A DNA stretch of 64,000 nucleotides, taken from NCBI GenBank assembly GCA_965220255.1, contig OZ244816.1, positions 1,736,491 to 1,800,490 of the forward strand. Direction: 5' to 3'. The DNA is from Dehalococcoidia bacterium (lineage in GTDB: Bacteria > Chloroflexota > Dehalococcoidia > Lucifugimonadales > VXLM01). Under the pieces are notes generated by a model. The model was not told the origin of the DNA. It did no database searches and saw only the letters and a list, made by a program, of their open reading frames with translations. Each line of letters begins with the position of its first letter. The stretch's first letter is position 1. This document shows positions 1 to 30,302 of this stretch, piece after piece. A program made the position numbers and the translations under genes.

Positions 1-518
1 ACTTTAGAATGCGTGACGTAGAGTTGTTGATACGGTTTTTTGCTTTCACCGAGTCGATTGAATGCTACAATGGTAATCTAAAGACATTTCTCGATAACAC
101 ATCGAAGCACTTTAACGATCACTGGAAGACACGAAAAGGCGATATCGAGCTAATTGCCGATCAATGCGACAAAGCTATAGATGTGACCTTTGAGATTTTT
201 GGAACAAATGCTTTCAGAAGGTGGCGAAGCCCGACCGGCTATGAAAATCGCTTCAATCGGGCAGTGTTTGACATAATGACATACTATTTCCGCTATCCTG
301 CTATAGGACAACGTGCTGTCAGAATGAAAGATGAAGTGAGGGAAGCGTTTGAAGAACTATGTAAGAATGATGAACAATTCAGTGAGTCATTACAGACAAC
401 GACTAAAAGTGTTGGATCCACATTTACGCGATTGCGCCGCTGGGGAGTGAAATTGCAATCTGTACTGGATTGTCAAATAGAAATTCCTGAGACTCCCTTG
501 TCGGCCGAACTCCACTAG
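1..518 (+). CDS. DUF262/GmrSD-like protein, C-terminal fragment (5' end outside window)
   Basis: Frame is open from nt 3 to the window edge (ORF track 9..518). The segment RDVELLIRFFAF...YNGNLKTFLDN resembles, from memory, the helical region downstream of ParB-like DUF262 domains. The first 60 nt are 42% GC, against about 60% in the next operon. Confidence 0.45.
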   Translation, partial: FRMRDVELLIRFFAFTESIECYNGNLKTFLDNTSKHFNDHWKTRKGDIELIADQCDKAIDVTFEIFGTNAFRRWRSPTGYENRFNRAVFDIMTYYFRYPAIGQRAVRMKDEVREAFEELCKNDEQFSESLQTTTKSVGSTFTRLRRWGVKLQSVLDCQIEIPETPLSAELH

Positions 519-525
519 ATGCAAA

Positions 526-1167
526 ATGCCAACTTCGCTCAGGTTTCGTGAACTGCGAAGAAGAATCGTAGAGCTGCGGGATCACTTCTTACCCAAACAG
601 TTTGACCCTACCGGTTCCTATACACCGCGTCAAAGTGATCGCGCCAGAGCATTCAGGTTGTTGGCACATGCGGAGATCGAATCCTATCTTGAGGATGTAG
701 TAAAGGAAGCAGCAAATGTAGCTTTCGAAATGTGGCGGACGGGTGCAGGTATTTCCTCGTCATTAGTCGCTATGATTGCATTTGTGGATGAAAATCTTGG
801 GGCGGTGCCAGAAACAAAGGATTTGACTGGTGAGCGGGAGTTGACGAAGAGGATAAGGCTGTCTAGGGACAAATTCAACAAGTATGCATTTGCAAGAAAT
901 CATGGAATCACTGAAAGAGATGTCTTGAAGCTATTGCTTCCTGTTGGAATAAGTGAAAAGGATATCGACTCAACATGGCTCGCAACTATAGATTCTTTTG
1001 GTCAATCTCGTGGAAGAACAGCTCACAGGTCAAAGCGAGTTGATCAACCACCGGACCCAAGGAACGAGTATGAGATAGTGAGTCAGATTATTGACGGCCT
1101 TATGGTGATTGACCAAGAATTGCTTGAATTAGGCAAACTACCACGGAAGAGGAGAGGAGGGAAGTAG
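526..1167 (+). CDS. HEPN-like protein (R-x4-H motif), likely partner of the upstream DUF262-like gene
   Basis: 213-aa ORF starting 8 nt after the upstream stop. Predicted helical protein with SRGRTAH (R-x4-H) near the C-terminal third. Low GC, like its neighbour. Confidence 0.45.
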   Translation: MPTSLRFRELRRRIVELRDHFLPKQFDPTGSYTPRQSDRARAFRLLAHAEIESYLEDVVKEAANVAFEMWRTGAGISSSLVAMIAFVDENLGAVPETKDLTGERELTKRIRLSRDKFNKYAFARNHGITERDVLKLLLPVGISEKDIDSTWLATIDSFGQSRGRTAHRSKRVDQPPDPRNEYEIVSQIIDGLMVIDQELLELGKLPRKRRGGK

Positions 1168-1477
1168 TTTGATGGAGGCCTACAAACAAGCAATAGCGTG
1201 GAGAACAATTCTCAATGTCAGAGTGCGACATGTGTATGTATAGCTTGCGCATATGGAGTTGTTTCTTGAGATTGTGCTAGGATGTTGACCCTCACAGACG
1301 GCGACTCCTTTAGATGTCGTGCGGAGCCGTCCTTTGAGCAGCACACATCTGTAGGGAGAGACTGTCGTCGCCTGATGACCATGTGGTGGAAGGTATCGTG
1401 TAAGTGGTGATGGGTGATAGTTCACCAGGTTGCACAGTCAAGGCTGGTGGTCATTGCTAGGGACGGTTTGACAGCGA

Positions 1478-2419
1478 ATGAACGCGATTGAGCTTGATGG
1501 CTTGACGAAGACGTTCAGGCGTCGGGGTTCGGAGCCGGTTCATGCCGTTGTCGATCTGAGTCTTTCGATACCTCGTGGCCAGATATTCGGCTTTCTTGGT
1601 CCGAACGGCGCGGGGAAGACGACCACGATCAAGATGATGTGCGGTGTCGTCGCGCCGGATTCCGGTGGGGCCACGCTACTCGGTCATGACGTCCGGCGGG
1701 ACCGGGCGGCCGCCATGCGGCAGTTCAGCGCGGTGCTCGAGGGGGCGCGTACCGTTTACTGGCGGCTTTCGGCGATGGAAAACCTGATGTATTTCGGGAG
1801 GCTGAAGGGCGTCCGGGGCAAGTATCTCAGGCCGAGAGGGGAGCGGCTGCTGAAGGAGCTGGATCTCTGGGACAGGAGGAACGACGACGTCCGGGAGTTC
1901 TCACGAGGGATGCAGCAGAAGGTAGCCATTGCGGCGGCGCTCATGTCCGATCCTCCGATTGTATTGCTCGACGAGCCCACGTTGGGCCTGGACGTCGAGT
2001 CGGCGCGGACGGTCCGAGAGTGGGTCTCGCGACTTGCCAAAGAGGAGAACAAGACCGTCCTGCTCACGACGCACCAGCTGACGATGGCCCAGGAGCTCTG
2101 CGACCGGGTGGCCATCATCAACGAGGGTCGTCTGATCGCGGATCGCACAGTCGCAGAGTTGCTGTCCCTGTTTCGTCGAGACTACTACAGGATACGTGTC
2201 GGCGGTCAAATCAAGGGCAAAGTGTCGCTACCGGAGGGACTGATTGTCGAGGAGGGCGAGCACGAGACGACGATATCGGGCGACATCGCCGACCAGGAGC
2301 GACTTCACGAGGTGCTCCGTTTGATACGAGAAGAGGGGCTGCCGCTCTTGTCGGTGCAACGCAGCGAGCCGAGTTTGGAGCACATCTTCATTGAGCTGCT
2401 GAACGAGGACCGACAGTGA
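1478..2419 (+). CDS. ABC transporter ATP-binding protein (ABC-2/DrrA-like)
   Basis: Walker A GPNGAGKTT, signature SRGMQQKV, Walker B VLLDEPTLGLD. Its stop overlaps the next start (GTGA). Confidence 0.9.
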   Translation: MNAIELDGLTKTFRRRGSEPVHAVVDLSLSIPRGQIFGFLGPNGAGKTTTIKMMCGVVAPDSGGATLLGHDVRRDRAAAMRQFSAVLEGARTVYWRLSAMENLMYFGRLKGVRGKYLRPRGERLLKELDLWDRRNDDVREFSRGMQQKVAIAAALMSDPPIVLLDEPTLGLDVESARTVREWVSRLAKEENKTVLLTTHQLTMAQELCDRVAIINEGRLIADRTVAELLSLFRRDYYRIRVGGQIKGKVSLPEGLIVEEGEHETTISGDIADQERLHEVLRLIREEGLPLLSVQRSEPSLEHIFIELLNEDRQ

Positions 2420-8951: not shown

Positions 8952-11111
8952 TCACCTAGAGGGCGCACTGCTCCATTCGTCGCGGCCGAGACCCTGTTCT
9001 CCTTCGGGGCGTCGAGGCGCGGTCGGATCGCCTGTCGCGCTCTGTCCGAAGTGCTCCGGTTTCCAGTACCAGACGCGCCCCTGATCGGCTCCGGCGACGA
9101 TCTCGAACTTACCGTCTCCGTCCCAGTCGACCGGGGCGGGATGGACACCGTGCCGCCAGAACTCCAGGGGCAGACCGTCCTTGTCCCACAGGATGACTTC
9201 GGGCCGCCTGAAGACGGGGATATTGTTCGTTCCGACGTTCTTGGCGAAGAGGACGTAGCTGCCGCGATACGGGCTTCCGTGCTGCGGGCCGACACCGAGG
9301 AGCAAGTCGAGCACACCGTCGCGGTCCCAGTCGACAACGGTGATCTTCGTCCTGCCGCGACCGTCGCCTCCTCCCTCGGTGTAGACCCCGTGGGTCTTTA
9401 TTGTCTCGCCGTCCTCGTAGCGCAGCTTTTCGCCGGGGTGCAGGAGGGAGGGTGCGTCGGGGCCGACCCTTCGGAATATGGCAAGGTCGAGGTCCTTGTC
9501 CTGGATGACGATGTCGGGCAGTCCGCTGCCGGAGAAATCTCCGACGCCGGCCTGTTGCCTCCAAGGGCCGCGCAATGGCTCGCCGTCGGTGACATACAGG
9601 CGTTGAGGAGGGCCAAGCTCCGGCTCGGTCTTAGTACCCCAGTTGGGATACCAATCGTAGAGGCCAATCATGTCGCTTACGAGCAGGTCCAGGAGGCCGT
9701 TGCCGTTCCAGTCCACGAGGACGGGATTGCTGTAACCGCCGGTGTCGCCGTCGTAGGGTCCCTGCGAGCCGCCCCAGTGGTGACCGCCTGCGGGGTCGGG
9801 CGCGGCAAGACGGCGAATCTCGGTCGTGCCGTATCGAACGCGCTCGGGCAGGGCGAAGCGCAGGGGATCTGTCGATAGGGTCTTGTACCAGAGGACGTAG
9901 CCCTCTACTCCGCCAACCAAGAGGTCGGGCGTACCAGTGCCACGCCAGTCGCCGACGGTGGGGACGCTGAAGAAGCTGTTGCCGACGTGGGGATTGCGCT
10001 GCCTGATCTTCTTCGGGGTGTCGTAGACGGGACGGCCTTCCGCGTCGTGGCCTCGGAGGCGGGACCACGAGGGAGTCTGGGAACGGTCGCCCGCGAAGAT
10101 GTCGAATCGTCCGGGTTCCAGCACGTCGGACACGCCGATGTTGATGTCGAAGTTCGTTGTGCGGTTGAACGGCTCATTGTGCAACGTGAAGAGCTCAGTG
10201 ATGGGTCCCCACTGTGGAGAAGGCCCCGTCGCAAGGAGGGGGAGGTGATAGACCCTGCCGTAGTAGGTACAGAGAAGGAAACCCGCGCCAGGGTTGGTCG
10301 GGTCGACGGGGGATGCCCACATGGTATGGCAGGGCAGGTCGACGTTCGCCTTGCCGGCGTAGGTGAATTGGATGCCGCCGTTAACTTCGAGTGTGGATTC
10401 CCGCTTCCGTGGGAATGACGGAGACATATGGCCGGTGTTCTTGAAGAGGTGAAGGGTCGGCGTGGGAACCTCGCCAATCCAGCGACCGTCCTGATGGTAG
10501 CGGTTGGCCTGGTCTTCGGGAGAAATCCCTGTTTTCGGGTCGATGTGGTACCCGCTGCGTTCGCCTCCGCTGACGACGACGAGGTCGGGTCTGCCGTCGC
10601 CGTTCCAGTCGATTGCCGCCGTGGATCCCTTTGCCCACGACTTGGCGTCAAGGTCGGTGCCAATCACGTCAACCGGGGTCCCGGCTTCACGGTCCGTCGC
10701 GACGCCTCCCATCAGCGAAAGGGCGACGACCGGCCTTTGCGAGTAGTATCTCAGCCCGATGATCACCTCGTCTGAGCCATCGCCGTTGAAGTCGGCGGCC
10801 GTGAGCAGGAAGCCGGTGAGACCCTCGTCATTCTCGTCGCGCTGGGCGGAACGGGAGATGGTGCCCCATCGCCGCCCCCGGTCGACGACGGGCGTCCCGT
10901 CCGCGAGGGCGTCAATGAACTTGTGGGCGAAGATGTCGTTGCCGGACGTTACGAGCTCCGATTCGCCGTCGCCGTCCCAGTCGAGTACGTGCACGGTCGA
11001 CGTTGGGTCGCAAGGCGCGTGAAGGTCGCCGATGACGTTGTCGTCGCCGAGCACCAATGGGGAGCCGTCCCCCCGGTTGCCGCCTTCGATGGGGCGTGGG
11101 TATTCGTTCAT
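8952..11111 (-). CDS. FG-GAP/VCBS repeat-containing protein (beta-propeller)
   Basis: 719 aa with many DWDGDG / DWNGDG / DFNGDGSDE calcium-binding-type repeats. SD AGGAGGA. No N-terminal signal peptide visible. Confidence 0.8.
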   Translation of the reverse strand: MNEYPRPIEGGNRGDGSPLVLGDDNVIGDLHAPCDPTSTVHVLDWDGDGESELVTSGNDIFAHKFIDALADGTPVVDRGRRWGTISRSAQRDENDEGLTGFLLTAADFNGDGSDEVIIGLRYYSQRPVVALSLMGGVATDREAGTPVDVIGTDLDAKSWAKGSTAAIDWNGDGRPDLVVVSGGERSGYHIDPKTGISPEDQANRYHQDGRWIGEVPTPTLHLFKNTGHMSPSFPRKRESTLEVNGGIQFTYAGKANVDLPCHTMWASPVDPTNPGAGFLLCTYYGRVYHLPLLATGPSPQWGPITELFTLHNEPFNRTTNFDINIGVSDVLEPGRFDIFAGDRSQTPSWSRLRGHDAEGRPVYDTPKKIRQRNPHVGNSFFSVPTVGDWRGTGTPDLLVGGVEGYVLWYKTLSTDPLRFALPERVRYGTTEIRRLAAPDPAGGHHWGGSQGPYDGDTGGYSNPVLVDWNGNGLLDLLVSDMIGLYDWYPNWGTKTEPELGPPQRLYVTDGEPLRGPWRQQAGVGDFSGSGLPDIVIQDKDLDLAIFRRVGPDAPSLLHPGEKLRYEDGETIKTHGVYTEGGGDGRGRTKITVVDWDRDGVLDLLLGVGPQHGSPYRGSYVLFAKNVGTNNIPVFRRPEVILWDKDGLPLEFWRHGVHPAPVDWDGDGKFEIVAGADQGRVWYWKPEHFGQSATGDPTAPRRPEGEQGLGRDEWSSAPSR
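10394..10421. repeat. Palindromic repeat copy embedded in-frame in the FG-GAP CDS
   Basis: tggattcccgcttccgtgggaatgacgg matches the intergenic family. On the coding strand it encodes ...SPSFPRKRES... Confidence 0.75.
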
Positions 11112-11282
11112 GATTCGATTCCTCCTGGCCGTATGAAGGGTTAGCCGGACGCGCGGAATTATACGCGGGAATGCGTAACACGTCGTGCTTTTTTCGCCGG
11201 AATTACTCTGTGGTCGTTATGGTATCCTTTGGGCGGCAACGCAGCGGGCTCTCGGACGATGCTAACGCACGGGAGGGACGAC

Positions 11283-12854
11283 ATGAAACGACCACGCTTG
11301 ATCTACTACAACGACGCTCACCACTTTCACGCCAAACGCATGGAACCGCCCGCCAGCATCCACATGCTGGAGTGGCCGGTCAACGAGGTCGCGGGCACGG
11401 GGGTAGACCTTCTCGTGCTGGGTCTTGGCTATGGCGACGTCTACTTTCACCAGAGCAAGGTGGGGCGTGTCGTGGGCCAGCAGAAAGAGGTGTGGGAGAA
11501 CTACATCGACTGGCGGATCATGCGGATGGTCGAAGAGGCCGCAGAGAAGGGGACCGACCAGCTCCGAGAGGTGATCCGGAGGGGCCGAGAGACGGGCATA
11601 TCTGTTTATCCCAGCTTCAAATTGCAGTCCACCAACGCCCGCTACAGTGAACGGTGTGGACGTCTCAAGTGGGAGCGGGGCAGCGAGGTCTGCATAGGTG
11701 AGCCCGGTCGCAACGAGTGGGCCTACGACTACGCGATTAAGGAAGTTCGCGACGAAAGCCTCGCCGTAATTCGTGAAGTGTTGGAGGACTATGAGGCCGA
11801 CGGCATTGAGCTTGATTACAAGTTCGGCGGGCAGTACTTCAAGAGCGACGCCGTGGACGAGGGCGTCAAGACGATGAATGCCTTCGTGATGGACGTCCGT
11901 GAACTTGCCACCCAGATTGGACAGAAGCAAGGTAGGGATGTCGGTGTCATGGCCCGTGTCGACTTGCTACGAGACACGAACCTGTCGGAGGCGCTCGACA
12001 CGGAGCAGTGGCTTCGTGACGGGTCGCTCGACTACATCGTGGGCCAGGACCCCTACGTCGTCTCGGAGACGGGAGTGCGACAGTCGTGGATGCCGGACGC
12101 CGCCAACGCCAATGGCGCGGCGGCGTACTACCGCCCGCCGAGGCGTGTATACGACGAGCGAGTAGGACTGCCAAGTATCGAAATGTATCGCGCGCTGAAC
12201 CAGACCCTTGCATCAGACGGATGGGGAGGACAGTACCACGGATACCTCCTGTGGCCGTTCGCCCACCGCGAGTACCAGATTCTCCGCGAGCTGGCCCACC
12301 CGGAAGTACACGTCCGCAGCCACAAGCGCTACATCGCCCAGCCGCGCGAGGGAGTGGAAGGTGAGCCGACCAAGACGCCGCACCGCGAGTTGCCTGCGGA
12401 GTTTGTGGAGGGCGAGACATCGTCGGTGACGATTCGCGTAGAGGACGACATAGAGAGCGCGAAGGCGGACGGCGAGATGCGCAAGCCGATACTGACGATC
12501 AGGTTCTCGTACTTCTGCATCGAGGACAAGTACGAGATCAGGTTCAACGGCGAGGCGCTTCCTCTCGACCAGGCAGAGATAACCGATGAGCGCGGGCTTG
12601 AGATGCGGACGATATTGCGCGGGGGGATGGACCTCCAAGCGCCCCTCGGCATGTCGGCGCACTGGTTCCGGTTCTCGCTGCCGATCCACCTCGTCAGGCG
12701 AGGGGACAACCTCGTCGAGGTCGAGATGTTCAAGTTCGAGCCTCGCGCGGGGTTTACGCGCAGCATCAACGGCGTCGAGGTGCTCATGCGCTACAAGGAT
12801 ATGGAGCGACCCCAAGGCTTCGACGTGGAGCGAGTGTCTCCGCTTTCGGCGTAG
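11283..12854 (+). CDS. Hypothetical protein, possibly a glycoside-hydrolase-like TIM barrel
   Basis: ATG at 11283 preceded by GGGAGGG. The segment EADGIELDYKFGG resembles GH-like (GHL10-type) barrels, but the family is not recognised with certainty. Confidence 0.6.
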   Translation: MKRPRLIYYNDAHHFHAKRMEPPASIHMLEWPVNEVAGTGVDLLVLGLGYGDVYFHQSKVGRVVGQQKEVWENYIDWRIMRMVEEAAEKGTDQLREVIRRGRETGISVYPSFKLQSTNARYSERCGRLKWERGSEVCIGEPGRNEWAYDYAIKEVRDESLAVIREVLEDYEADGIELDYKFGGQYFKSDAVDEGVKTMNAFVMDVRELATQIGQKQGRDVGVMARVDLLRDTNLSEALDTEQWLRDGSLDYIVGQDPYVVSETGVRQSWMPDAANANGAAAYYRPPRRVYDERVGLPSIEMYRALNQTLASDGWGGQYHGYLLWPFAHREYQILRELAHPEVHVRSHKRYIAQPREGVEGEPTKTPHRELPAEFVEGETSSVTIRVEDDIESAKADGEMRKPILTIRFSYFCIEDKYEIRFNGEALPLDQAEITDERGLEMRTILRGGMDLQAPLGMSAHWFRFSLPIHLVRRGDNLVEVEMFKFEPRAGFTRSINGVEVLMRYKDMERPQGFDVERVSPLSA

Positions 12855-24799: not shown

Positions 24800-25261
24800 C
24801 TACGCATCACTTTCCGCCTTGTTCCTTCGCCGCAGGACGATGTATGTGACGACCGTCGACGTTATCAGGCTCAGTAGGCCGCCGATGAGGATGTCGATGG
24901 GCACGAGGATGGTGGGCCATGTCTTCATCATCAGGAAGATCGGGACGATGTACGTGGCGTAGGCCGCGCAGCCGAGGACGAAGCTGTTCTTCATCGCCCT
25001 GATGAGGTTGTTCTCCTTCAGGGCGGGCTCGATGGCGAGGTAGCTGTTGCCGAGCGCGATCAGCCCCAGGAACACGAGCAGGGCGAGTCCCTGCTCGACT
25101 CCCCACGTGTCCATCTTCCTGCCGAACTCGTCGAGCAGCGCGTCGTTGCCGCTGGCCTCGTAGAGACTCTCATACATCCCCATCGCAATGGGCGAGACGT
25201 TCCACCCCACGTCGATGACCGTATATACAACGAATGCCGCTAGGAACCTGATGTAGTGCAT
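24800..25261 (-). CDS. Small integral membrane protein (DUF2177-like)
   Basis: 153 aa with about 4 TM segments. The pattern GCAAYATYIV...TWPTILVPIDILIGG resembles DUF2177, from memory. Confidence 0.5.
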   Translation of the reverse strand: MHYIRFLAAFVVYTVIDVGWNVSPIAMGMYESLYEASGNDALLDEFGRKMDTWGVEQGLALLVFLGLIALGNSYLAIEPALKENNLIRAMKNSFVLGCAAYATYIVPIFLMMKTWPTILVPIDILIGGLLSLITSTVVTYIVLRRRNKAESDA

Positions 25262-25398
25262 GTTTGCCTCGTGTCGTGGGTTGGGAGTGTGGGGGGATTT
25301 GTATCACGCGGGGTGGTGGGTGGGCAAGCGGGGGGTAAGATGCCTCAATCGCTTTGAGGTAGCATCCTAATCTCATAGAATAGTTTTTCCGCAGTCTT

Positions 25399-26349
25399 CT
25401 AGTGGATATAGCCCGGAACTGTCGTCGCATCCTCAAAGATGTCGATGCCGGCAATCTCTTTTACCAAATGGCGGAGCGCGATCAATTCCTCCGGACGATG
25501 GATCCATCTAGTAAGGAAAGCGTCAGGGTCTTCCCGAATCATCGCAAGAGCTTGTTCATTTACAGTTGGTCTACCAGTAAGTAACTCGTACGGGAATTCC
25601 GTTAGAACAGCAAGCCTCCGTAAGTGCTGTTCATCATAGAACTCGGACGGCCACTTGGCACCCTTTTCTCCGTTGCAAGTCGTGCACAAGAGAGTGGCAT
25701 TCTCTGTCGTTAGAGGCCATAGCAACCGGGCTGGAAGCGTATGATCAAGGGCTTCGTTCTGCTCATCAATGTCAGTGTCACACGAAAAACACTGGTATCC
25801 GAATTTCTTACGAATCTTATTCCGATCGAGTCGGGGGGTGTCACCTCCCAACAACCCAAGAAGACGCCGCCGTTCGGAGGCTTCACGGTGCTGTTCGGAG
25901 ATGCGAGTCTTGTTTTTGATCCGGTTATAAGCAGTCTTGCACGATTTACACTCCCCTTGACGCCCCGATTGTGGTCTGGACCCATGCCTCCCGAAAGCGT
26001 CAAGAGGTTTCATTGTGTAGCAGAGTAGGCAGTATTTGTGGTCAAGGGCATCTCGCACGTAGTCGCCATGCTCTACGACAAATTCTGACGACTCGACGAC
26101 CTTCCCCTCCACGATGAGGTCATAGTCGAACAATCGAGTCGCTGCGCCATCGCGCAGTTCATGCAGGCACGACTCGCACCGTAGCCGGAACCCTGGACGT
26201 ATGTCGTCCCGACGGACAACTATCCATGCTTGGCACTCTGCCACCAGACACTGGAATACCTTGAAGACAGTGTCTCCCTGGCCGCGGACATGTGCTGGGC
26301 GGTTCTGCTCGTGTTTCAGGACTTTCGAGTAGGGTCCACGTCTCGGCAA
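25399..26349 (-). CDS. HNH (beta-beta-alpha-Me) endonuclease with N-terminal zinc-ribbon-like modules; candidate restriction endonuclease
   Basis: CFSCDTDIDEQNEALDHTLP...ENATLLCTTCNGEKGAKWP. Upstream Cys pairs CLVAEC...CESC and CLLC...CKSC. TTG start with SD GGAGGA 5 nt upstream. One 60-nt line here is 45% GC. Confidence 0.75.
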   Translation of the reverse strand: MPRRGPYSKVLKHEQNRPAHVRGQGDTVFKVFQCLVAECQAWIVVRRDDIRPGFRLRCESCLHELRDGAATRLFDYDLIVEGKVVESSEFVVEHGDYVRDALDHKYCLLCYTMKPLDAFGRHGSRPQSGRQGECKSCKTAYNRIKNKTRISEQHREASERRRLLGLLGGDTPRLDRNKIRKKFGYQCFSCDTDIDEQNEALDHTLPARLLWPLTTENATLLCTTCNGEKGAKWPSEFYDEQHLRRLAVLTEFPYELLTGRPTVNEQALAMIREDPDAFLTRWIHRPEELIALRHLVKEIAGIDIFEDATTVPGYIH

Positions 26350-26400
26350 GTGACTCCTCCGGCAACTACAATGAGGATTATCGGCGCAAAGCTAGTCTGC

Positions 26401-26449
26401 TGCAATTGCCATTGCATGTAACTACCAAGATATGGTAGTTTCTTGCAAT
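26401..26449. promoter_or_regulatory. Palindromic candidate operators in the divergent nuclease/methylase promoter region
   Basis: TGCAAT-tgcc-ATTGCA (26401-26416). AACTACCA-agata-TGGTAGTT (26420-26440). A third TGCAAT overlaps the MTase ATG (26444-26449). Confidence 0.35.
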
Positions 26450-29117
26450 GGGCGCACCCACATATAAGTCAATCTACTTCCGCGACTTTCCGTCTCCCGA
26501 TTCTCAGCGTAGGGCCCTGACACTCGCCGTCGGAGCTACTGAGCCAGATCTCGCTATGGCGATCCGCAGCATGAGTAGCCACCAACTTCGGACGGCAATC
26601 GGATACTCGTCCTATTCAGCCCTTGTAGCTGCGGCTGCCTCGGCAGACATACCTGTACACACTTTCTGCATTCGTCTCCTCAAGAAGTGGTTAGGTAAGA
26701 AGAAGTCGGAGGCTGGCTCAGATATTCCGGGCCTTGACGGGCCAATCAGCCATCTCATTACGTTCTCGGACGATCGGGCTGCTCCCTTCCAACGCTGGTT
26801 CCCTCTGCTGGAGGGGTATTCTCTCTCATTCGTGGAACTATTGCTAGCCGAGCGTGGAGGAGATGCCACGCGGGTCCTGGATCCCTTTGGTGGAGTAGGA
26901 ACTACTCCACTTGCAGTAGCCCTTAGAGGCTCATCCGCATTCTATGCCGAAGTCAATCCCGTTCTCCAGAAAGTCGCGGATGCTAAGTTCAAGGCACTTG
27001 GCCTGAGTCAATGGGAACGCGCTATGCTGGTAAGTGAACTTCGGTCCTTGGCCGACCAGTTGCCTACTATAGTTGAGTCCGTTGGAGCAGACCAACAGCT
27101 AAGGGATGCGTATGAACGCACGTTCGGTGTCAGTGAATTCTTCGACGAACACACTTTTGAAGCCGTCTTATCAGTACGGCGCGCTATCGATGTGGCAGAG
27201 ACAGGAACCGAACTAACTCGCGATCTGTTTGAGGTTGCCGCAATCGCCTCTCTCCAGCCTGCTTCGTTCCTTATCCGAGCTGGCGACTTGCGATATCGAA
27301 AGGGACGCGAATTGGATCGAAAGGAGCCTTTCATTGACGGGCTCCGCAACCGGGTTCTAGCTATCGCAGACGATGTCGAGGCAATCGAGGATATAACGGA
27401 ACGGCCGCTCTTGGTGGCGGCGGACGCGCAACGTCTTGATCGAATTCCTCCACTCGGTATCGACGCGGTAGTCACGAGCCCACCGTATTTGAATGGAACC
27501 AATTACATACGGAACACCAAACTCGAACTATGGTTCGTGAGAGCGCTTAAGTCGAAATCAGATCTTCGTTCGTATCGCGACGCGGCAATCACTGCGGGAA
27601 TCAACGATGTACGGGGAGCCGAAGTGCCAGTTCGCTTCGACGCCGCACGCGCGGTGGTATCTGACCTAAAGAACAATGCCTATGATTCTAGAATCCCTAG
27701 GATGGTGTCATCGTATCTTAGTGGTATGTCGAAAGTATTTGCTGGACTTGCCCATCACATGAAGTCAGGCGCACCAGTTTTCCTCGACATTGGGGACTCC
27801 GCCTACGGCGGGATCCACGTTCCAACAGACAGGCTGTTAGTCGAGGTAGCTGCCGACTACGGATTTCGATTGCTAAAGAGCGAAGTGCTGAGAACGAGAA
27901 TGTCCCGCACAGAGATCGCCCTCTCTCAGACTCTCCTCACATTCGAGTTTGTGGCTCCTAGCACCACTGCACAAGGGCGGGCAACCGTTCAGTCGTTACC
28001 GTTCGCTGATGGGTGGAAGGCCTTTAAGGCCGACCTTCCTCACCAGAGCGCACCCTATGCAAAGCGCAACTGGGGCAATGCGAGACATAGCATTTGCTCT
28101 TACCAAGGGAAGATGAAACCCTCTCTCGCTAGTCACTTGGTTAATGTCTTTGCACCCGCGAATGGAACTGTCCTTGATCCCTTCGCTGGGGTCGGCACAA
28201 TTCCGTTCGAAGCTTGCCTTACTGGTCGTCGAGGTATCGGATTCGAGATCTCTCCAGCTGCTCTCGCAATCATGAGGGCAAAATTGACTCCTCCTAACCA
28301 GTTGCAGACTATCAGCCTTATCGACGACCTAGAGGAATATATGAACACCGCCGTAGAGGAGGAGATTGATCGGTCTGTAGCGCGCGAAGTGGCTTTCAAC
28401 GGTCCACTAGAGACTTACTTCCACGATAGAACCTTCAAGGAGATACTGGCGGCGAGGGGATATTTTCAACGCTTGCAGGAAACTCCAGCGAAGGCCTTCG
28501 TCCTTGCATGCCTCCTTCACATCCTACACGGGAATCGACCCTACGCCTTGAGCCGTCGATCTCATCCAATAACTCCATTTGCCCCCACTGGGCCGACAGA
28601 ATATCGCGCTCTCATACCCCGTCTTCGAGAGAAGGCAAGGCGGATGATGGACACCCCCTTACCGGGATGTTTCGTACAAGGAGAGGCACTTCTCCAAGAC
28701 GCTACGGCCCCTTGGCCAGGATGCGTTACGGAGGTCGATGCAATCATAACTTCTCCACCATTCTTCGACAGTACTCGCTTCTATCTCGCGAACTGGATAC
28801 GGCTATGGTTTTGCGGTTGGGGAAGGAACGACTTCTCGCTGGAACCACATAGATACGTCGATGAGCGACAAAAGCGTAGTTTCACAGTCTACCAATCAGT
28901 GCTCCGACAGGCTCGCGAGCGACTCAGGCAGGATGGAGTGCTGATTCTGCACCTAGGCAAGAGCCGTAAGAGCAATATGTCGGATGCGCTAGTGCGCGTC
29001 TCCTCGCCATGGTTCCGGGTGGTTGATAGATTCGAAGAGAGCGTAACTCACACTGAATCTCATGGAATTCGAGACAAAGGAACAGTGACATCGCACCAGT
29101 ATCTCGTTTTGGCTTAA
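26448..29117 (+). CDS. Tandem (internally duplicated) N6-adenine/N4-cytosine DNA methyltransferase
   Basis: Two motif sets. VLDPFGGVGTT (from nt 26877) with TSPPY (27477-27488). VLDPFAGVGTI (from nt 28170) with TSPPF (28752-28763). The regions around the motifs resemble each other (DAVVTSPPY...LELWF vs DAIITSPPF...IRLWF). Confidence 0.8.
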   Translation: MGAPTYKSIYFRDFPSPDSQRRALTLAVGATEPDLAMAIRSMSSHQLRTAIGYSSYSALVAAAASADIPVHTFCIRLLKKWLGKKKSEAGSDIPGLDGPISHLITFSDDRAAPFQRWFPLLEGYSLSFVELLLAERGGDATRVLDPFGGVGTTPLAVALRGSSAFYAEVNPVLQKVADAKFKALGLSQWERAMLVSELRSLADQLPTIVESVGADQQLRDAYERTFGVSEFFDEHTFEAVLSVRRAIDVAETGTELTRDLFEVAAIASLQPASFLIRAGDLRYRKGRELDRKEPFIDGLRNRVLAIADDVEAIEDITERPLLVAADAQRLDRIPPLGIDAVVTSPPYLNGTNYIRNTKLELWFVRALKSKSDLRSYRDAAITAGINDVRGAEVPVRFDAARAVVSDLKNNAYDSRIPRMVSSYLSGMSKVFAGLAHHMKSGAPVFLDIGDSAYGGIHVPTDRLLVEVAADYGFRLLKSEVLRTRMSRTEIALSQTLLTFEFVAPSTTAQGRATVQSLPFADGWKAFKADLPHQSAPYAKRNWGNARHSICSYQGKMKPSLASHLVNVFAPANGTVLDPFAGVGTIPFEACLTGRRGIGFEISPAALAIMRAKLTPPNQLQTISLIDDLEEYMNTAVEEEIDRSVAREVAFNGPLETYFHDRTFKEILAARGYFQRLQETPAKAFVLACLLHILHGNRPYALSRRSHPITPFAPTGPTEYRALIPRLREKARRMMDTPLPGCFVQGEALLQDATAPWPGCVTEVDAIITSPPFFDSTRFYLANWIRLWFCGWGRNDFSLEPHRYVDERQKRSFTVYQSVLRQARERLRQDGVLILHLGKSRKSNMSDALVRVSSPWFRVVDRFEESVTHTESHGIRDKGTVTSHQYLVLA

Positions 29118-29118
29118 C

Positions 29119-29148
29119 GATGGGGAATCATCTATCTAATTCCCCATC
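29119..29148. terminator. Hairpin between the convergent MTase and thrB genes (possible bidirectional terminator)
   Basis: gatggggaat-catctatcta-attccccatc: perfect 10-bp stem. No clear U-tract. Confidence 0.35.
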
Positions 29149-29176
29149 CTCGTCTCCCCAATAGACACCGTACCCC

Positions 29177-30076
29177 TCACCCCACCACGCGCACGCCCGC
29201 GGCCGTTGGCTTGGTGACGATTACGTCGCCGTCGACGCCGGCTTTGGAGGCGGCTTCGGCCATTTCGTAGCCGATGGTCATTTCGCGGGCGGATGAGAGG
29301 GCGAGGATGGTGGAGCCGGCGCCTGAGAGGAAAGCGCCGTGTGCGCCGGCGTCGAGGGCGGCGCGCATGATGACCTTCATGGGGTGAAAGATCGACTGGC
29401 GCGGGGGCTGGTGGAGGCGGTCCTGGGTGGCGACGGCGAGGCGGTCGAGGTCGTCGGTGGCGAGGGCGTTGACGAGGAGTCCGACGCGGCCCATGTTGAA
29501 GACGGCGTCCTGGACGGATATGTCGGTCGGGAGCACGGAGCGGGCCTCGGCGGTGGGCATGGGCATCTCCGGCACGAAGAGGACGGCGCTGAGTCGCTCC
29601 GGTATGGAGACGGTCGAGGTGACGAGGCGGTCTCCGTCGTGGACGACGACCTGGCATCCGCCGTAGAGGGCGGCGGCGGAGTTGTCGGGGTGTCCCTCGA
29701 TGCGGGCGGCAATGGCCAGGACGCGCGCGTCATTTAAGGGGCGTCCAAGCAGCTCGTTGGCGGCGACGATGCCCGCGACCGCGGCGGCGGAGCTGCTGCC
29801 GAGTCCGCGTCCCAGCGGTATCTCGTTGGTGCAGGTGAAGCGGACGGACGGCGCGGGTTGGCCTGCCTCCTCGCAGGCGAGCTGGAAGGCACGCGCCACG
29901 AGGTTGTCCGGGCCGGTCGGAAGCTCGTCGCGTCCGAGGCCGTGTATCTCGAACCCGGTCGCATCGGTGTCGACGCGCACGGTGTTCCAAATGTCGAGTG
30001 CGATGCCGAGGCAGTCGAAGCCCGGCCCCATGTTGGCGCTCGTGGCGGGCGCTTGCACGGTGACGCTGCGTGCCAT
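29177..30076 (-). CDS. thrB: Homoserine kinase
   Basis: SANMGPGFDCLG and GHMP motif GRGLGSSSAAAVAG. ATG at 30076 preceded by GGAGGGAGG. The longer ORF to 30190 runs through a repeat. Confidence 0.85.
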   Translation of the reverse strand: MARSVTVQAPATSANMGPGFDCLGIALDIWNTVRVDTDATGFEIHGLGRDELPTGPDNLVARAFQLACEEAGQPAPSVRFTCTNEIPLGRGLGSSSAAAVAGIVAANELLGRPLNDARVLAIAARIEGHPDNSAAALYGGCQVVVHDGDRLVTSTVSIPERLSAVLFVPEMPMPTAEARSVLPTDISVQDAVFNMGRVGLLVNALATDDLDRLAVATQDRLHQPPRQSIFHPMKVIMRAALDAGAHGAFLSGAGSTILALSSAREMTIGYEMAEAASKAGVDGDVIVTKPTAAGVRVVG

Positions 30077-30120
30077 TTCGTTCCTCCCTGCGGTGGTAAT
30101 CCGGCGGGGGCAGGTGTTTG

Positions 30121-30185
30121 CCCTCACCCCAACCCCCGTATCGAGTACGGGGCAGGCTCTCTCCCACGACGGGAGAGGGGCGGAG
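30121..30185. repeat. Tandem hairpin repeat modules
   Basis: ccctcacccc...ccccgtatcgagtacgggg...ctctcccacgacgggagagggg. Same modules at 53584-53620, 45541-45600 and 56341-56394. Confidence 0.75.
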
Positions 30186-30302
30186 GTCATTATACAACGC
30201 CGCTATGCCTCGAATCGGATATAATTGAGAGGCTGAACACTCGAACCAGACTTGCGATGCGAGTCTCCTCTGCGTCGCAATATCACCCCCGCACCTCACC
30301 CA

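Follow-up and report, generated by a model that had tools for sequence, protein, structure and literature searches.

A horizontally mobile gene pair of a zinc-ribbon HNH nuclease and a double amino-methyltransferase, a probable Type II restriction-modification module

Introduction

M.FokI is a single polypeptide in which two amino-methyltransferase domains each modify one strand of an asymmetric site, and the FokI nuclease recognises DNA with its N-terminal region and cleaves it with a separate C-terminal domain. In the MboII system one amino-methyltransferase produces N6-methyladenine (m6A) and a second N4-methylcytosine (m4C). The Type IIS systems HpyAV and Hin4II (CCTTC 6/5) combine an HNH endonuclease with two methyltransferase activities, which are fused in HpyAV and separate (M1 and M2) in Hin4II (PMC2816704). 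MboII/HpyAII, MnlI, HphI and Eco31I are HNH/ββα-Me Type IIS enzymes with asymmetric sites and two methyltransferases (PMC2816704 and PMC4081073). Here we describe a pair of divergent genes on the Dehalococcoidia bacterium contig OZ244816.1, lying in an island (25262–29176) of a 64,000-nt window, that is the whole stretch of DNA that was analysed. One gene encodes a zinc-ribbon HNH nuclease and the other a fused double amino-methyltransferase.

We consider it highly probable that the pair is a mobile two-gene Type II restriction-modification (R-M) module which moves horizontally as a unit, and in which the HNH nuclease is cognate to the double methyltransferase. The module would work like the HpyAV/Hin4II, MboII and FokI systems, yet it does not belong to any of these families. 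We regard it as a credible candidate for a new restriction enzyme, from a widespread uncharacterised family, and not as a new kind of system.

As between HpyAV and Hin4II, the methyltransferase is fused in some members of the window's family and split in others (PMC2816704). HpyAV however joins a C5-cytosine to an N6-adenine methyltransferase, whereas both halves are here paralogous amino-methyltransferases with SPPY and SPPF motifs. The HNH domain of HpyAV is colicin-E9-like (HH...N...H), with no zinc site described in the passages of PMC2816704 consulted, whereas the nuclease studied here resembles Cas9 and McrA (DH...N...N) and has, besides a Cys4 zinc site, two additional zinc ribbons. The pair is thus not placed in the HpyAV/Hin4II family, being set apart from it by description and not by sequence. 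Like M.FokI, the methyltransferase has two complete amino-methyltransferase domains per chain; in both halves motif I comes first and is separated from motif IV by a long insert. M.FokI differs in its DPPY motif IV (N6-adenine), a distinction by motif and not by sequence alignment, and FokI differs from the window's nuclease in cleaving with a PD-(D/E)xK domain instead of an HNH domain. Compared by description, none of MboII/HpyAII, MnlI, HphI and Eco31I is reported with a double zinc-ribbon N-domain, and their methyltransferases are separate and of other classes.

Nuclease and methyltransferase genes are neighbours in most genomes

A scan of a genome collection gave 80 loci encoding HNH relatives (the HNH-centred set) from at least 10 phyla, including Dehalococcoidia, Poribacteria, Latescibacterota, Proteobacteria, Bacillota, Bacteroidota and cyanobacteria. 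Both methyltransferase halves were found beside the HNH gene in 78 of the 80, usually at a spacing of 30–130 bp. Of the two exceptions, L040 is truncated at the end of its contig, and L041 is weighed further below. Gene order was variable: the genes are convergent in 69 loci, divergent as in the window in 4 and tandem in 3, and no third gene family recurred in the HNH-centred loci. Both genes are under purifying selection (dN/dS 0.08–0.15 overall), with values against close relatives of 0.08–0.13 for the nuclease and 0.11–0.15 for the methyltransferase. Public names of family members ('hypothetical', 'McrA', 'YacG', 'Trm11' and 'DNA methyltransferase') are uninformative or wrong.

An initial annotation of the window, made from the sequence before the present comparison, had described the two open reading frames (ORFs), their coordinates, their divergent orientation and the 98-bp gap, all exactly as we find them. 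It had also proposed that they form an R-M pair, which is borne out by their adjacency across phyla in shuffled order and by the invariant catalytic motifs of the methyltransferase halves. Its criterion, that the two genes be inherited together, holds in one direction: the HNH gene is nearly always accompanied by this methyltransferase, whose family can in turn have an unrelated nuclease of the NOV_C/PD-(D/E)xK type as its partner.

Some loci depart from the simple pair. A Bacillota locus (L051) carries a GIY-YIG/DUF4357 gene (11020–11907, minus strand) inserted between the HNH and methyltransferase genes. Paenibacillus favisporus DSM 17253 (L039) has two tandem HNH paralogues (10001–10996, 331 aa, 44% identity with the window's nuclease, and 11018–12007, 329 aa, 38%) beside split M1/M2 genes, and these paralogues may form a two-subunit nuclease for the two strands. 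Signs of decay were seen in L046 (4982–5734) and L074 (11055–11714), where the C-terminal methyltransferase half is fragmented, and in L058 (10001–10858), where the HNH match stops early, at residue 281; these could be pseudogenes or assembly errors.

A Cas9-like HNH domain behind a family-specific N-terminal domain

The nuclease family is conserved over its full length, with 357 database homologues at 45–80% identity and about 100% coverage. Three Cys4 clusters are formed by C34/C39/C58/C61, C107/C110/C134/C137 and C187/C190/C222/C225, the last of which lies within the HNH domain. In an alignment of 86 sequences, 11 of the 12 zinc cysteines are invariant, C225 being replaced by His in some homologues, and D202, H203, N226 and the N-terminal MPRR..Y..K are invariant as well. 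The HNH motif, as checked by translation, reads ALDHTLP...ENATLLCTTCNGEKG and agrees with the one first annotated. The two zinc-ribbon pairs noted at that time are also present, but the first is of the Cx4C...CxxC type and the clusters number three in total.

Pfam HNH_5 matches the nuclease with E 8.5e-6 and 26.1 bits, just below the 27.5-bit cutoff. The protein has the hallmarks of the HNH/ββα-Me superfamily, namely a catalytic His, a metal-binding Asn and a structural Cys4 zinc site (C187, C190 and C222 invariant), and its D-H...N...N pattern aligns with the HNH motif of Cas9. Cas9 HNH domains are the closest relatives of the catalytic domain (phmmer E 0.0019; family profile 4.8e-5) and the only solved structures that the family profile matches. 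They were also the best Foldseek matches of the C-terminal domain (probability 1.0), followed by weaker matches to Gme HNH, McrA, Hpy99I and PacI. Cas9 and EcoKMcrA have the D-H...N...N arrangement in common with the window's nuclease but belong to an RNA-guided or modification-dependent context, and nothing is shared beyond the HNH domain of about 100 residues.

An AlphaFold2 (AF2) model built from the 86-sequence alignment, with a mean predicted local distance difference test (pLDDT) of 89.6, consists of an N-domain (residues 10–145), a low-confidence linker (146–175) and a C-terminal HNH domain, with one catalytic domain per chain. The predicted template-modelling score was 0.54 for the whole chain versus 0.82 for the N-domain alone, which was modelled with a pLDDT of 93.6. 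This modular layout, in which an N-domain with a putative role in recognition is separate from the cleavage domain, is the one expected of Type IIS nucleases. The C-terminal helical region contains several conserved positions (L246, T250, G259, N264, D276 and D303), and possibly serves in dimerisation or DNA contacts.

Foldseek found no meaningful match to the N-domain in the PDB (best E 0.33, TM ≤0.35), and among viral models only a sub-module of 41–50 residues matched viral HNH proteins, at 0.5–2 Å root-mean-square deviation. By an exhaustive profile search of 1.84 billion representatives, the full N-domain was confined to about 34 clusters of the nuclease family (E ≤1e-30): positions 1–98 of the profile match family members only, and positions 100–150 recur, often in tandem, in many other proteins. 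The 'endonuclease VII/HNH' families of PHROG cover residues 99/104–242 (phrog_1035, E 2.5e-14). The N-terminal half had at first not been recognised as any family; this still applies to residues 1–98, which are family-specific, but not to residues 99–150, a common module found in phage 'endonuclease VII/HNH' families. Judged by these searches, residues 1–98 appear to adopt a fold without relatives outside the family and without a match in the structure libraries searched, and they are presumed to be the DNA-recognition part. No modified-base reader fold (SRA, McrA N-domain) was detected in the N-domain.

Phage zinc-ribbon HNH endonucleases ('endonuclease VII' PHROGs; PMC3592412) have, like the window's nuclease, a zinc-ribbon module before the HNH core. 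However, the phage genes lie near terminase/cos sites, encode nicking enzymes and are unlinked to methyltransferases, whereas the window's family is chromosomal, stands beside methyltransferases, adds a 98-residue domain of its own and is homologous to the phage families over residues 99–242 only.

One HNH subgroup (P0077, P0096 and P0120, about 418 aa) is extended at the N terminus by about 87 aa that contain further Cys motifs (CPCGKG...C..C), possibly a fourth zinc-binding module. Exact look-ups of the window's nuclease (P0001), P0171 and P0154 returned no record.

Two paired methyltransferase domains, fused or split

The motifs annotated at the outset in the two methyltransferase halves (VLDPFGGVGTT/TSPPYLN and VLDPFAGVGTI/TSPPFFD) were found again by translation. 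Motifs I and IV start at residues 143 and 343 in the N half and at 575 and 768 in the C half, that is with a spacing of about 200 and about 194 residues, respectively. The halves are paralogous: they align with 24% identity over 244 aa (E 5e-11), in a region spanning motif I, the long insert and motif IV. Among 64 methyltransferases from related loci, little or no variation was seen in D-P-F-x-G-x-G-T and T-S-P-P-Y-x-N of the N half or in L-D-P-F-x-G-x-G-T and T-S-P-P-F of the C half, S-P-P-F being invariant. The family has no fewer than 1167 homologues, and the majority are full length. The two halves are encoded by separate, often overlapping M1 and M2 genes (about 400 and about 380 aa) in about 11 loci, mostly from Bacillota, plus one from Acidimicrobiia.

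The PADLOC MTase_II model PDLC03389 matches residues 104–498 end to end with E 1.4e-64, other PADLOC MTase_II models match residues 540–690 in the C half, and Pfam N6_N4_Mtase matches the motif I region of the C half only (E 8.1e-16). Neither half has C5-cytosine motifs or a Pfam C5 match, and our search for a close solved structure found none. An SPP[YF] motif IV favours N4-cytosine methylation, which is a rule of thumb with exceptions, so that m4C would be the likelier product of the SPPY and SPPF halves. Assignment as an RNA methyltransferase (Trm11/UPF0020) was rejected: those matches cover the motif I region only, and MTase_II spans the whole N half at the E value given above.

A second, unrelated nuclease beside close relatives of the methyltransferase

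Loci collected around the methyltransferase formed a small sample, partly picked for the absence of HNH matches. Some of them encode an alternative partner, a nuclease candidate of 416–511 aa with a C-terminal NOV_C/Mrr_cat PD-(D/E)xK domain (D344...E359-x-K361 invariant) behind an uncharacterised N-terminal region of about 290 aa. None of the curated restriction-enzyme models of Pfam, NCBIfam and PADLOC covers this nuclease. It occurs without an HNH gene in L161–L163, whose methyltransferases are 63–81% identical to the window's (79–81% for the close relatives), and in the more distant L172. Both nucleases are present in five HNH-centred loci (L045, L056, L065, L066 and L079) and in the methyltransferase-centred L164/L165; in such three-gene loci the gene order varies and the genes are always contiguous. 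An HNH or HNH-like partner alone was found in L167–L171 of the methyltransferase-centred sample.

The NOV_C-linked methyltransferases of L162 and L163 nest, at 78–84% identity, among the HNH-linked ones of the window and of L001, L002 and L003, and therefore the partner was lost or exchanged recently. A three-gene ancestor (HNH, methyltransferase and NOV_C) was not confirmed in the window's clade, where L173 is without a NOV_C gene. The two nucleases have no detectable similarity (hhalign probability 0.3%), and a recognition domain common to both was rejected.

A tentative interpretation, which we regard as possible but doubtful, is that the double methyltransferase is a hub served interchangeably by two unrelated modular nucleases, the zinc-ribbon HNH protein and the NOV_C-type PD-(D/E)xK protein, which stand beside methyltransferases 79–84% identical to one another. 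If both were restrained by the same methylation, a single asymmetric site would have to be recognised by two unrelated domains, that of the HNH protein with a fold unmatched in the structure libraries searched. Alternatively, in the three-gene loci the two nucleases might split the two strands between them. If the hub interpretation is true, DNA specificity would have converged here in nature, and two new Type IIS-like tool enzymes could be gained. The interchange of HNH and PD-(D/E)xK partners on nearly identical methyltransferases is a clean example of swapping of the toxic component of an R-M system, and it could be used to examine how unrelated proteins arrive at the recognition of one DNA sequence.

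In L164/L165 the methyltransferase, the NOV_C-type nuclease and an HNH-like gene stand beside a phage-type integrase, DruA and DUF87, that is in a defence-island context, which the window lacks.

The pair moves as a unit

The module was acquired horizontally and is mobile as a two-gene unit. First, in blastn comparisons with the Dehalococcoidia loci L001–L003 (78–81% identical), similarity begins at 25386/25399 and ends at 29120, so that it covers the two genes and is bounded by their stop codons. Second, none of the window's flank genes occurs near any HNH relative in the 80 loci, and the chromosomal site is different in every locus, with no common sequence context among the insertion sites. 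Third, the GC content of the pair is lower than that of its flanks in 72 of 73 hosts (mean difference 0.083), and it still tracks host GC (r = 0.91). One copy of the pair is on a plasmid (L064), and a search of plasmid databases gave a single partial match, to the HNH domain only.

Composition tells the same for the window. With a GC content of 0.533, the island lies below every other 3.9-kb stretch of the window (mean 0.606, SD 0.019), and its tetranucleotide distance from the window mean is 0.310 versus 0.161 ± 0.030, which ranks first of 121. The contrast in GC put forward in the initial annotation (40–58% versus 60–75%) was however too strong, since 500-bp windows give a milder one (0.51–0.55 versus 0.57–0.70). 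Horizontal acquisition, as proposed there, is upheld by the deviant composition, the absence of the flank genes near relatives, the end of homology at the stop codons and the lower GC content across hosts. Likewise, no tRNA, integrase or convincing flanking repeat was found in the 64-kb window, in line with that annotation.

We then looked at the insertion site from the side of thrB. Among 80 ThrB-centred metagenome loci, the synteny of MutS2 and thrB is conserved and the R-M pair is present in none. The closest thrB relative (L081) is collinear with the window from 37906 down to 29183 (MutS2, thrB and the upstream genes), and this collinearity ends at the 3' end of thrB (10894 in L081). The cassette therefore sits at a synteny breakpoint and does not interrupt two genes that are conserved as neighbours. 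In relatives, thrB does not adjoin the DUF2177/ACP/NusB/FabD side, and the DUF2177 side is non-syntenic even in L081. With ThrB as a probe in metagenomes, no clean empty site was obtained, only the synteny break at the right edge of the island. For the host genome, the pair would be an ordinary selfish defence cassette at a breakpoint beside thrB.

Predicted function and alternative explanations

The pair has two of the marks of a Type II R-M system, a methyltransferase with intact motifs and a separate nuclease gene linked to it across genomes (78/80 loci), and the host would be protected by methylation. The site is probably asymmetric, as suggested by the two strictly conserved, paired and paralogous methyltransferase domains, fused or split, and by analogy with HpyAV/Hin4II, which display the same pattern. 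Each methyltransferase domain, with its own target-recognition insert, would methylate one strand of this site. The zinc-ribbon N-terminal domain of the nuclease would locate the unmethylated site, and the Cas9/McrA-type HNH domain (D202-H203, N226 and the Cys4 zinc) would cut the DNA. With the single active site of an HNH domain, both strands could be cut only by two nuclease molecules or in two sequential steps. Offset cleavage in the Type IIS manner is plausible, the single observation pointing to it being the recognition domain-linker-cleavage domain layout of the model; the enzyme could cut beyond its site, as Type IIS enzymes do, or inside it (Type IIA). An exchangeable restriction partner is consistent with the pairing of the same methyltransferase family with an unrelated PD-(D/E)xK nuclease.

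Several points weigh against a Type II R-M module of cognate nuclease and methyltransferase. Our interpretation is built on sequence and genomic comparison. None of the curated restriction-enzyme models of Pfam, NCBIfam and PADLOC matches the nuclease. We found no characterised member of the family in the literature; REBASE lay outside the comparison, and a prior characterisation is possible. Comparing k-mer depletion between 1.14 Mb of system-bearing flanks and 0.78 Mb of controls revealed generic palindrome avoidance only and no asymmetric candidate site. Some close relatives of the methyltransferase have no HNH gene, so that this enzyme can be independent of the HNH protein, and the exceptions to the SPPY/SPPF rule count against the predicted m4C. 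Finally, Sporofaciens musculi WCA-9-b2 (L041, 10001–11011) has an intact-looking HNH gene between housekeeping genes with no methyltransferase within 10 kb; its cognate methylase may lie elsewhere in the genome, or the HNH gene may be silent.

Three other explanations were considered, all of them disfavoured mainly because of the tight, order-independent linkage to two active methyltransferases and the absence of the family from phages. The one that survives best, which we nonetheless hold to be unlikely, is a nicking R-M system, where the HNH protein would be a site-specific nickase of the phage zinc-ribbon HNH or N.BstNBI type and double-strand cuts would need a second subunit or nuclease. 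The single active site of the HNH domain and the one catalytic domain per modelled chain are compatible with nicking, the activity known for phage zinc-ribbon HNH proteins (PMC3592412). The tandem HNH paralogues beside the split M1/M2 genes of L039, and the six locus types that carry both an HNH and a PD-(D/E)xK nuclease, likewise speak for it. Yet a lone HNH gene without a second nuclease is the rule, in 75 of the 80 HNH-centred loci, and the HNH Type IIS enzymes HpyAV, MnlI and HphI cut both strands with one protein (in part PMC2816704).

Very improbable, in our view, is that the HNH protein depends on modified DNA (Type IV, McrA-like) and that the methyltransferase is an independent enzyme in the same defence island. 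In favour of it stand the label 'McrA' that automatic annotations give to some family members, the resemblance of the catalytic domain to the HNH domains of EcoKMcrA and Cas9, and the methyltransferases found without an HNH gene. A Type IV McrA-like enzyme is however a stand-alone protein with a reader domain and no methyltransferase, unlike the window's nuclease, whose N-domain contains neither an SRA nor a McrA N-domain reader fold as far as detected. Adjacency in 78 of 80 loci, usually at 30–130 bp and with the order reshuffled across phyla, is far tighter than co-location in defence islands, and the host genome itself would be in danger from a methyl-dependent nuclease fixed beside two active methyltransferases.

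Just as hard to credit is a homing or mobility function, in which the nuclease would cut empty sites and so spread the methyltransferase cassette: the homology of core residues 99–242 to phage 'endonuclease VII/HNH' families and a cassette at a different site in each genome, bounded exactly by the two genes and with no integrase or repeats, would suit it, but the full-length HNH family has no match in 50,697 phage records (which also answers the concern, raised with the initial annotation, of a phage or homing HNH gene unlinked to methylases), the insertion sites share no sequence context, R-M cassettes are known to move without dedicated mobility genes (PMC2853133), and the strict conservation of two methyltransferase domains would be left unexplained.

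If the prediction of a Type II R-M module holds, the family would be a source of a new restriction specificity, probably asymmetric and possibly Type IIS, with N4-methylcytosine on both strands. It is especially common in uncultured marine and sponge-associated lineages (Dehalococcoidia, Poribacteria and Latescibacterota). Carriers in culture include Ureibacillus manganicus DSM 26584, Paenibacillus favisporus DSM 17253, Lacibacter sp. MH-610, Tabrizicola sp. M-4 and Ihubacter sp. rT4E-8. As the family is widespread, its methylation motif should therefore appear in many metagenome methylomes without an assigned enzyme.

Features of the locus

The coordinates of the features are collected in Table 1.

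Table 1. Features of the gene pair, of its surroundings and of the second nuclease partner (positions in the window, or in the named locus)
Feature	Position	Strand	Remarks
Compositional island	25262–29176		GC and tetranucleotide outlier; part common to relatives 25386/25399–29120
Nuclease gene, zinc-ribbon HNH	25399–26349	-	Restriction endonuclease candidate; 316 aa; TTG start at 26349, stop 25399–25401
Nuclease residues 1–98	26056–26349	-	First zinc ribbon (C34, C39, C58, C61) and long β-hairpin; family-specific
Nuclease residues 99–150	25900–26055	-	Second zinc ribbon (C107, C110, C134, C137); widespread module
Nuclease residues 176–243, HNH (ββα-Me) core	25621–25824	-	Zn site C187/C190/C222/C225; D202-H203, N217, N226
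Nuclease residues 244–316	25402–25620	-	C-terminal helical region; AF2 helices at 240–300
Divergent intergenic region	26350–26447		98 bp, between nuclease and methyltransferase genes
Methyltransferase gene, fused double amino-methyltransferase	26448–29117	+	Putative modification enzyme; 889-aa ORF
Methyltransferase N-terminal extension	26448–26747	+	About 100 aa; no Pfam match; weakly conserved; absent from Bacillota and other short versions
N-terminal methyltransferase domain	26748–28007	+	Motif I VLDPFGGVGTT (26874–26906), insert of about 190 aa, motif IV TSPPYLN (27474–27494)
C-terminal methyltransferase domain	28008–29114	+	Motif I VLDPFAGVGTI (28170–28202), insert of about 185 aa, motif IV TSPPFFD (28749–28769)
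Left flank, DUF2177 membrane-protein gene	24800–25261	-	
Right flank, thrB (GHMP kinase)	29177–30190	-	
NOV_C-type gene, L161	8692–10227		
NOV_C-type gene, L162	8767–10092		
NOV_C-type gene, L163	8772–10097		
NOV_C-type gene, L172	8669–9925		
NOV_C-type gene, L165	4545–5834		
NOV_C-type gene, L079	11009–12259		HNH-centred locus
NOV_C-type gene, L056	13847–15115		HNH-centred locus
NOV_C-type gene, L045	11009–12298		HNH-centred locus
NOV_C-type genes, L065 and L066			HNH-centred loci

The start codon of the nuclease is preceded by a Shine-Dalgarno sequence, GGAGGAG, on the minus strand (26354–26360), 4 nt upstream of the TTG. The intergenic region contains an inverted repeat with perfect 8-bp arms, AACTACCA-N5-TGGTAGTT (26420–26440), which ends 8 nt before the ATG of the methyltransferase. 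This block is invariant in the window and L001–L003, loci that are otherwise only 78–81% identical, and it is a candidate operator or translational hairpin for the control of the divergent restriction and modification genes.

As listed, the thrB ORF encodes 337 aa from an ATG at 30190. The homology of relatives begins 38 codons later, at Met39 (30076), and this internal ATG is probably the true start.

The left end of the window (1–2000) is a second deviant stretch, with a GC content of 0.499 and a tetranucleotide distance of 0.300. It encodes a HEPN_RiboL-PSP domain protein (526–1167, plus strand; Pfam E 6.7e-8), whose gene is preceded by a 169-aa ORF without a family match and followed by an ABC-2 transporter pair. 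This stretch may be another acquired defence or toxin gene.

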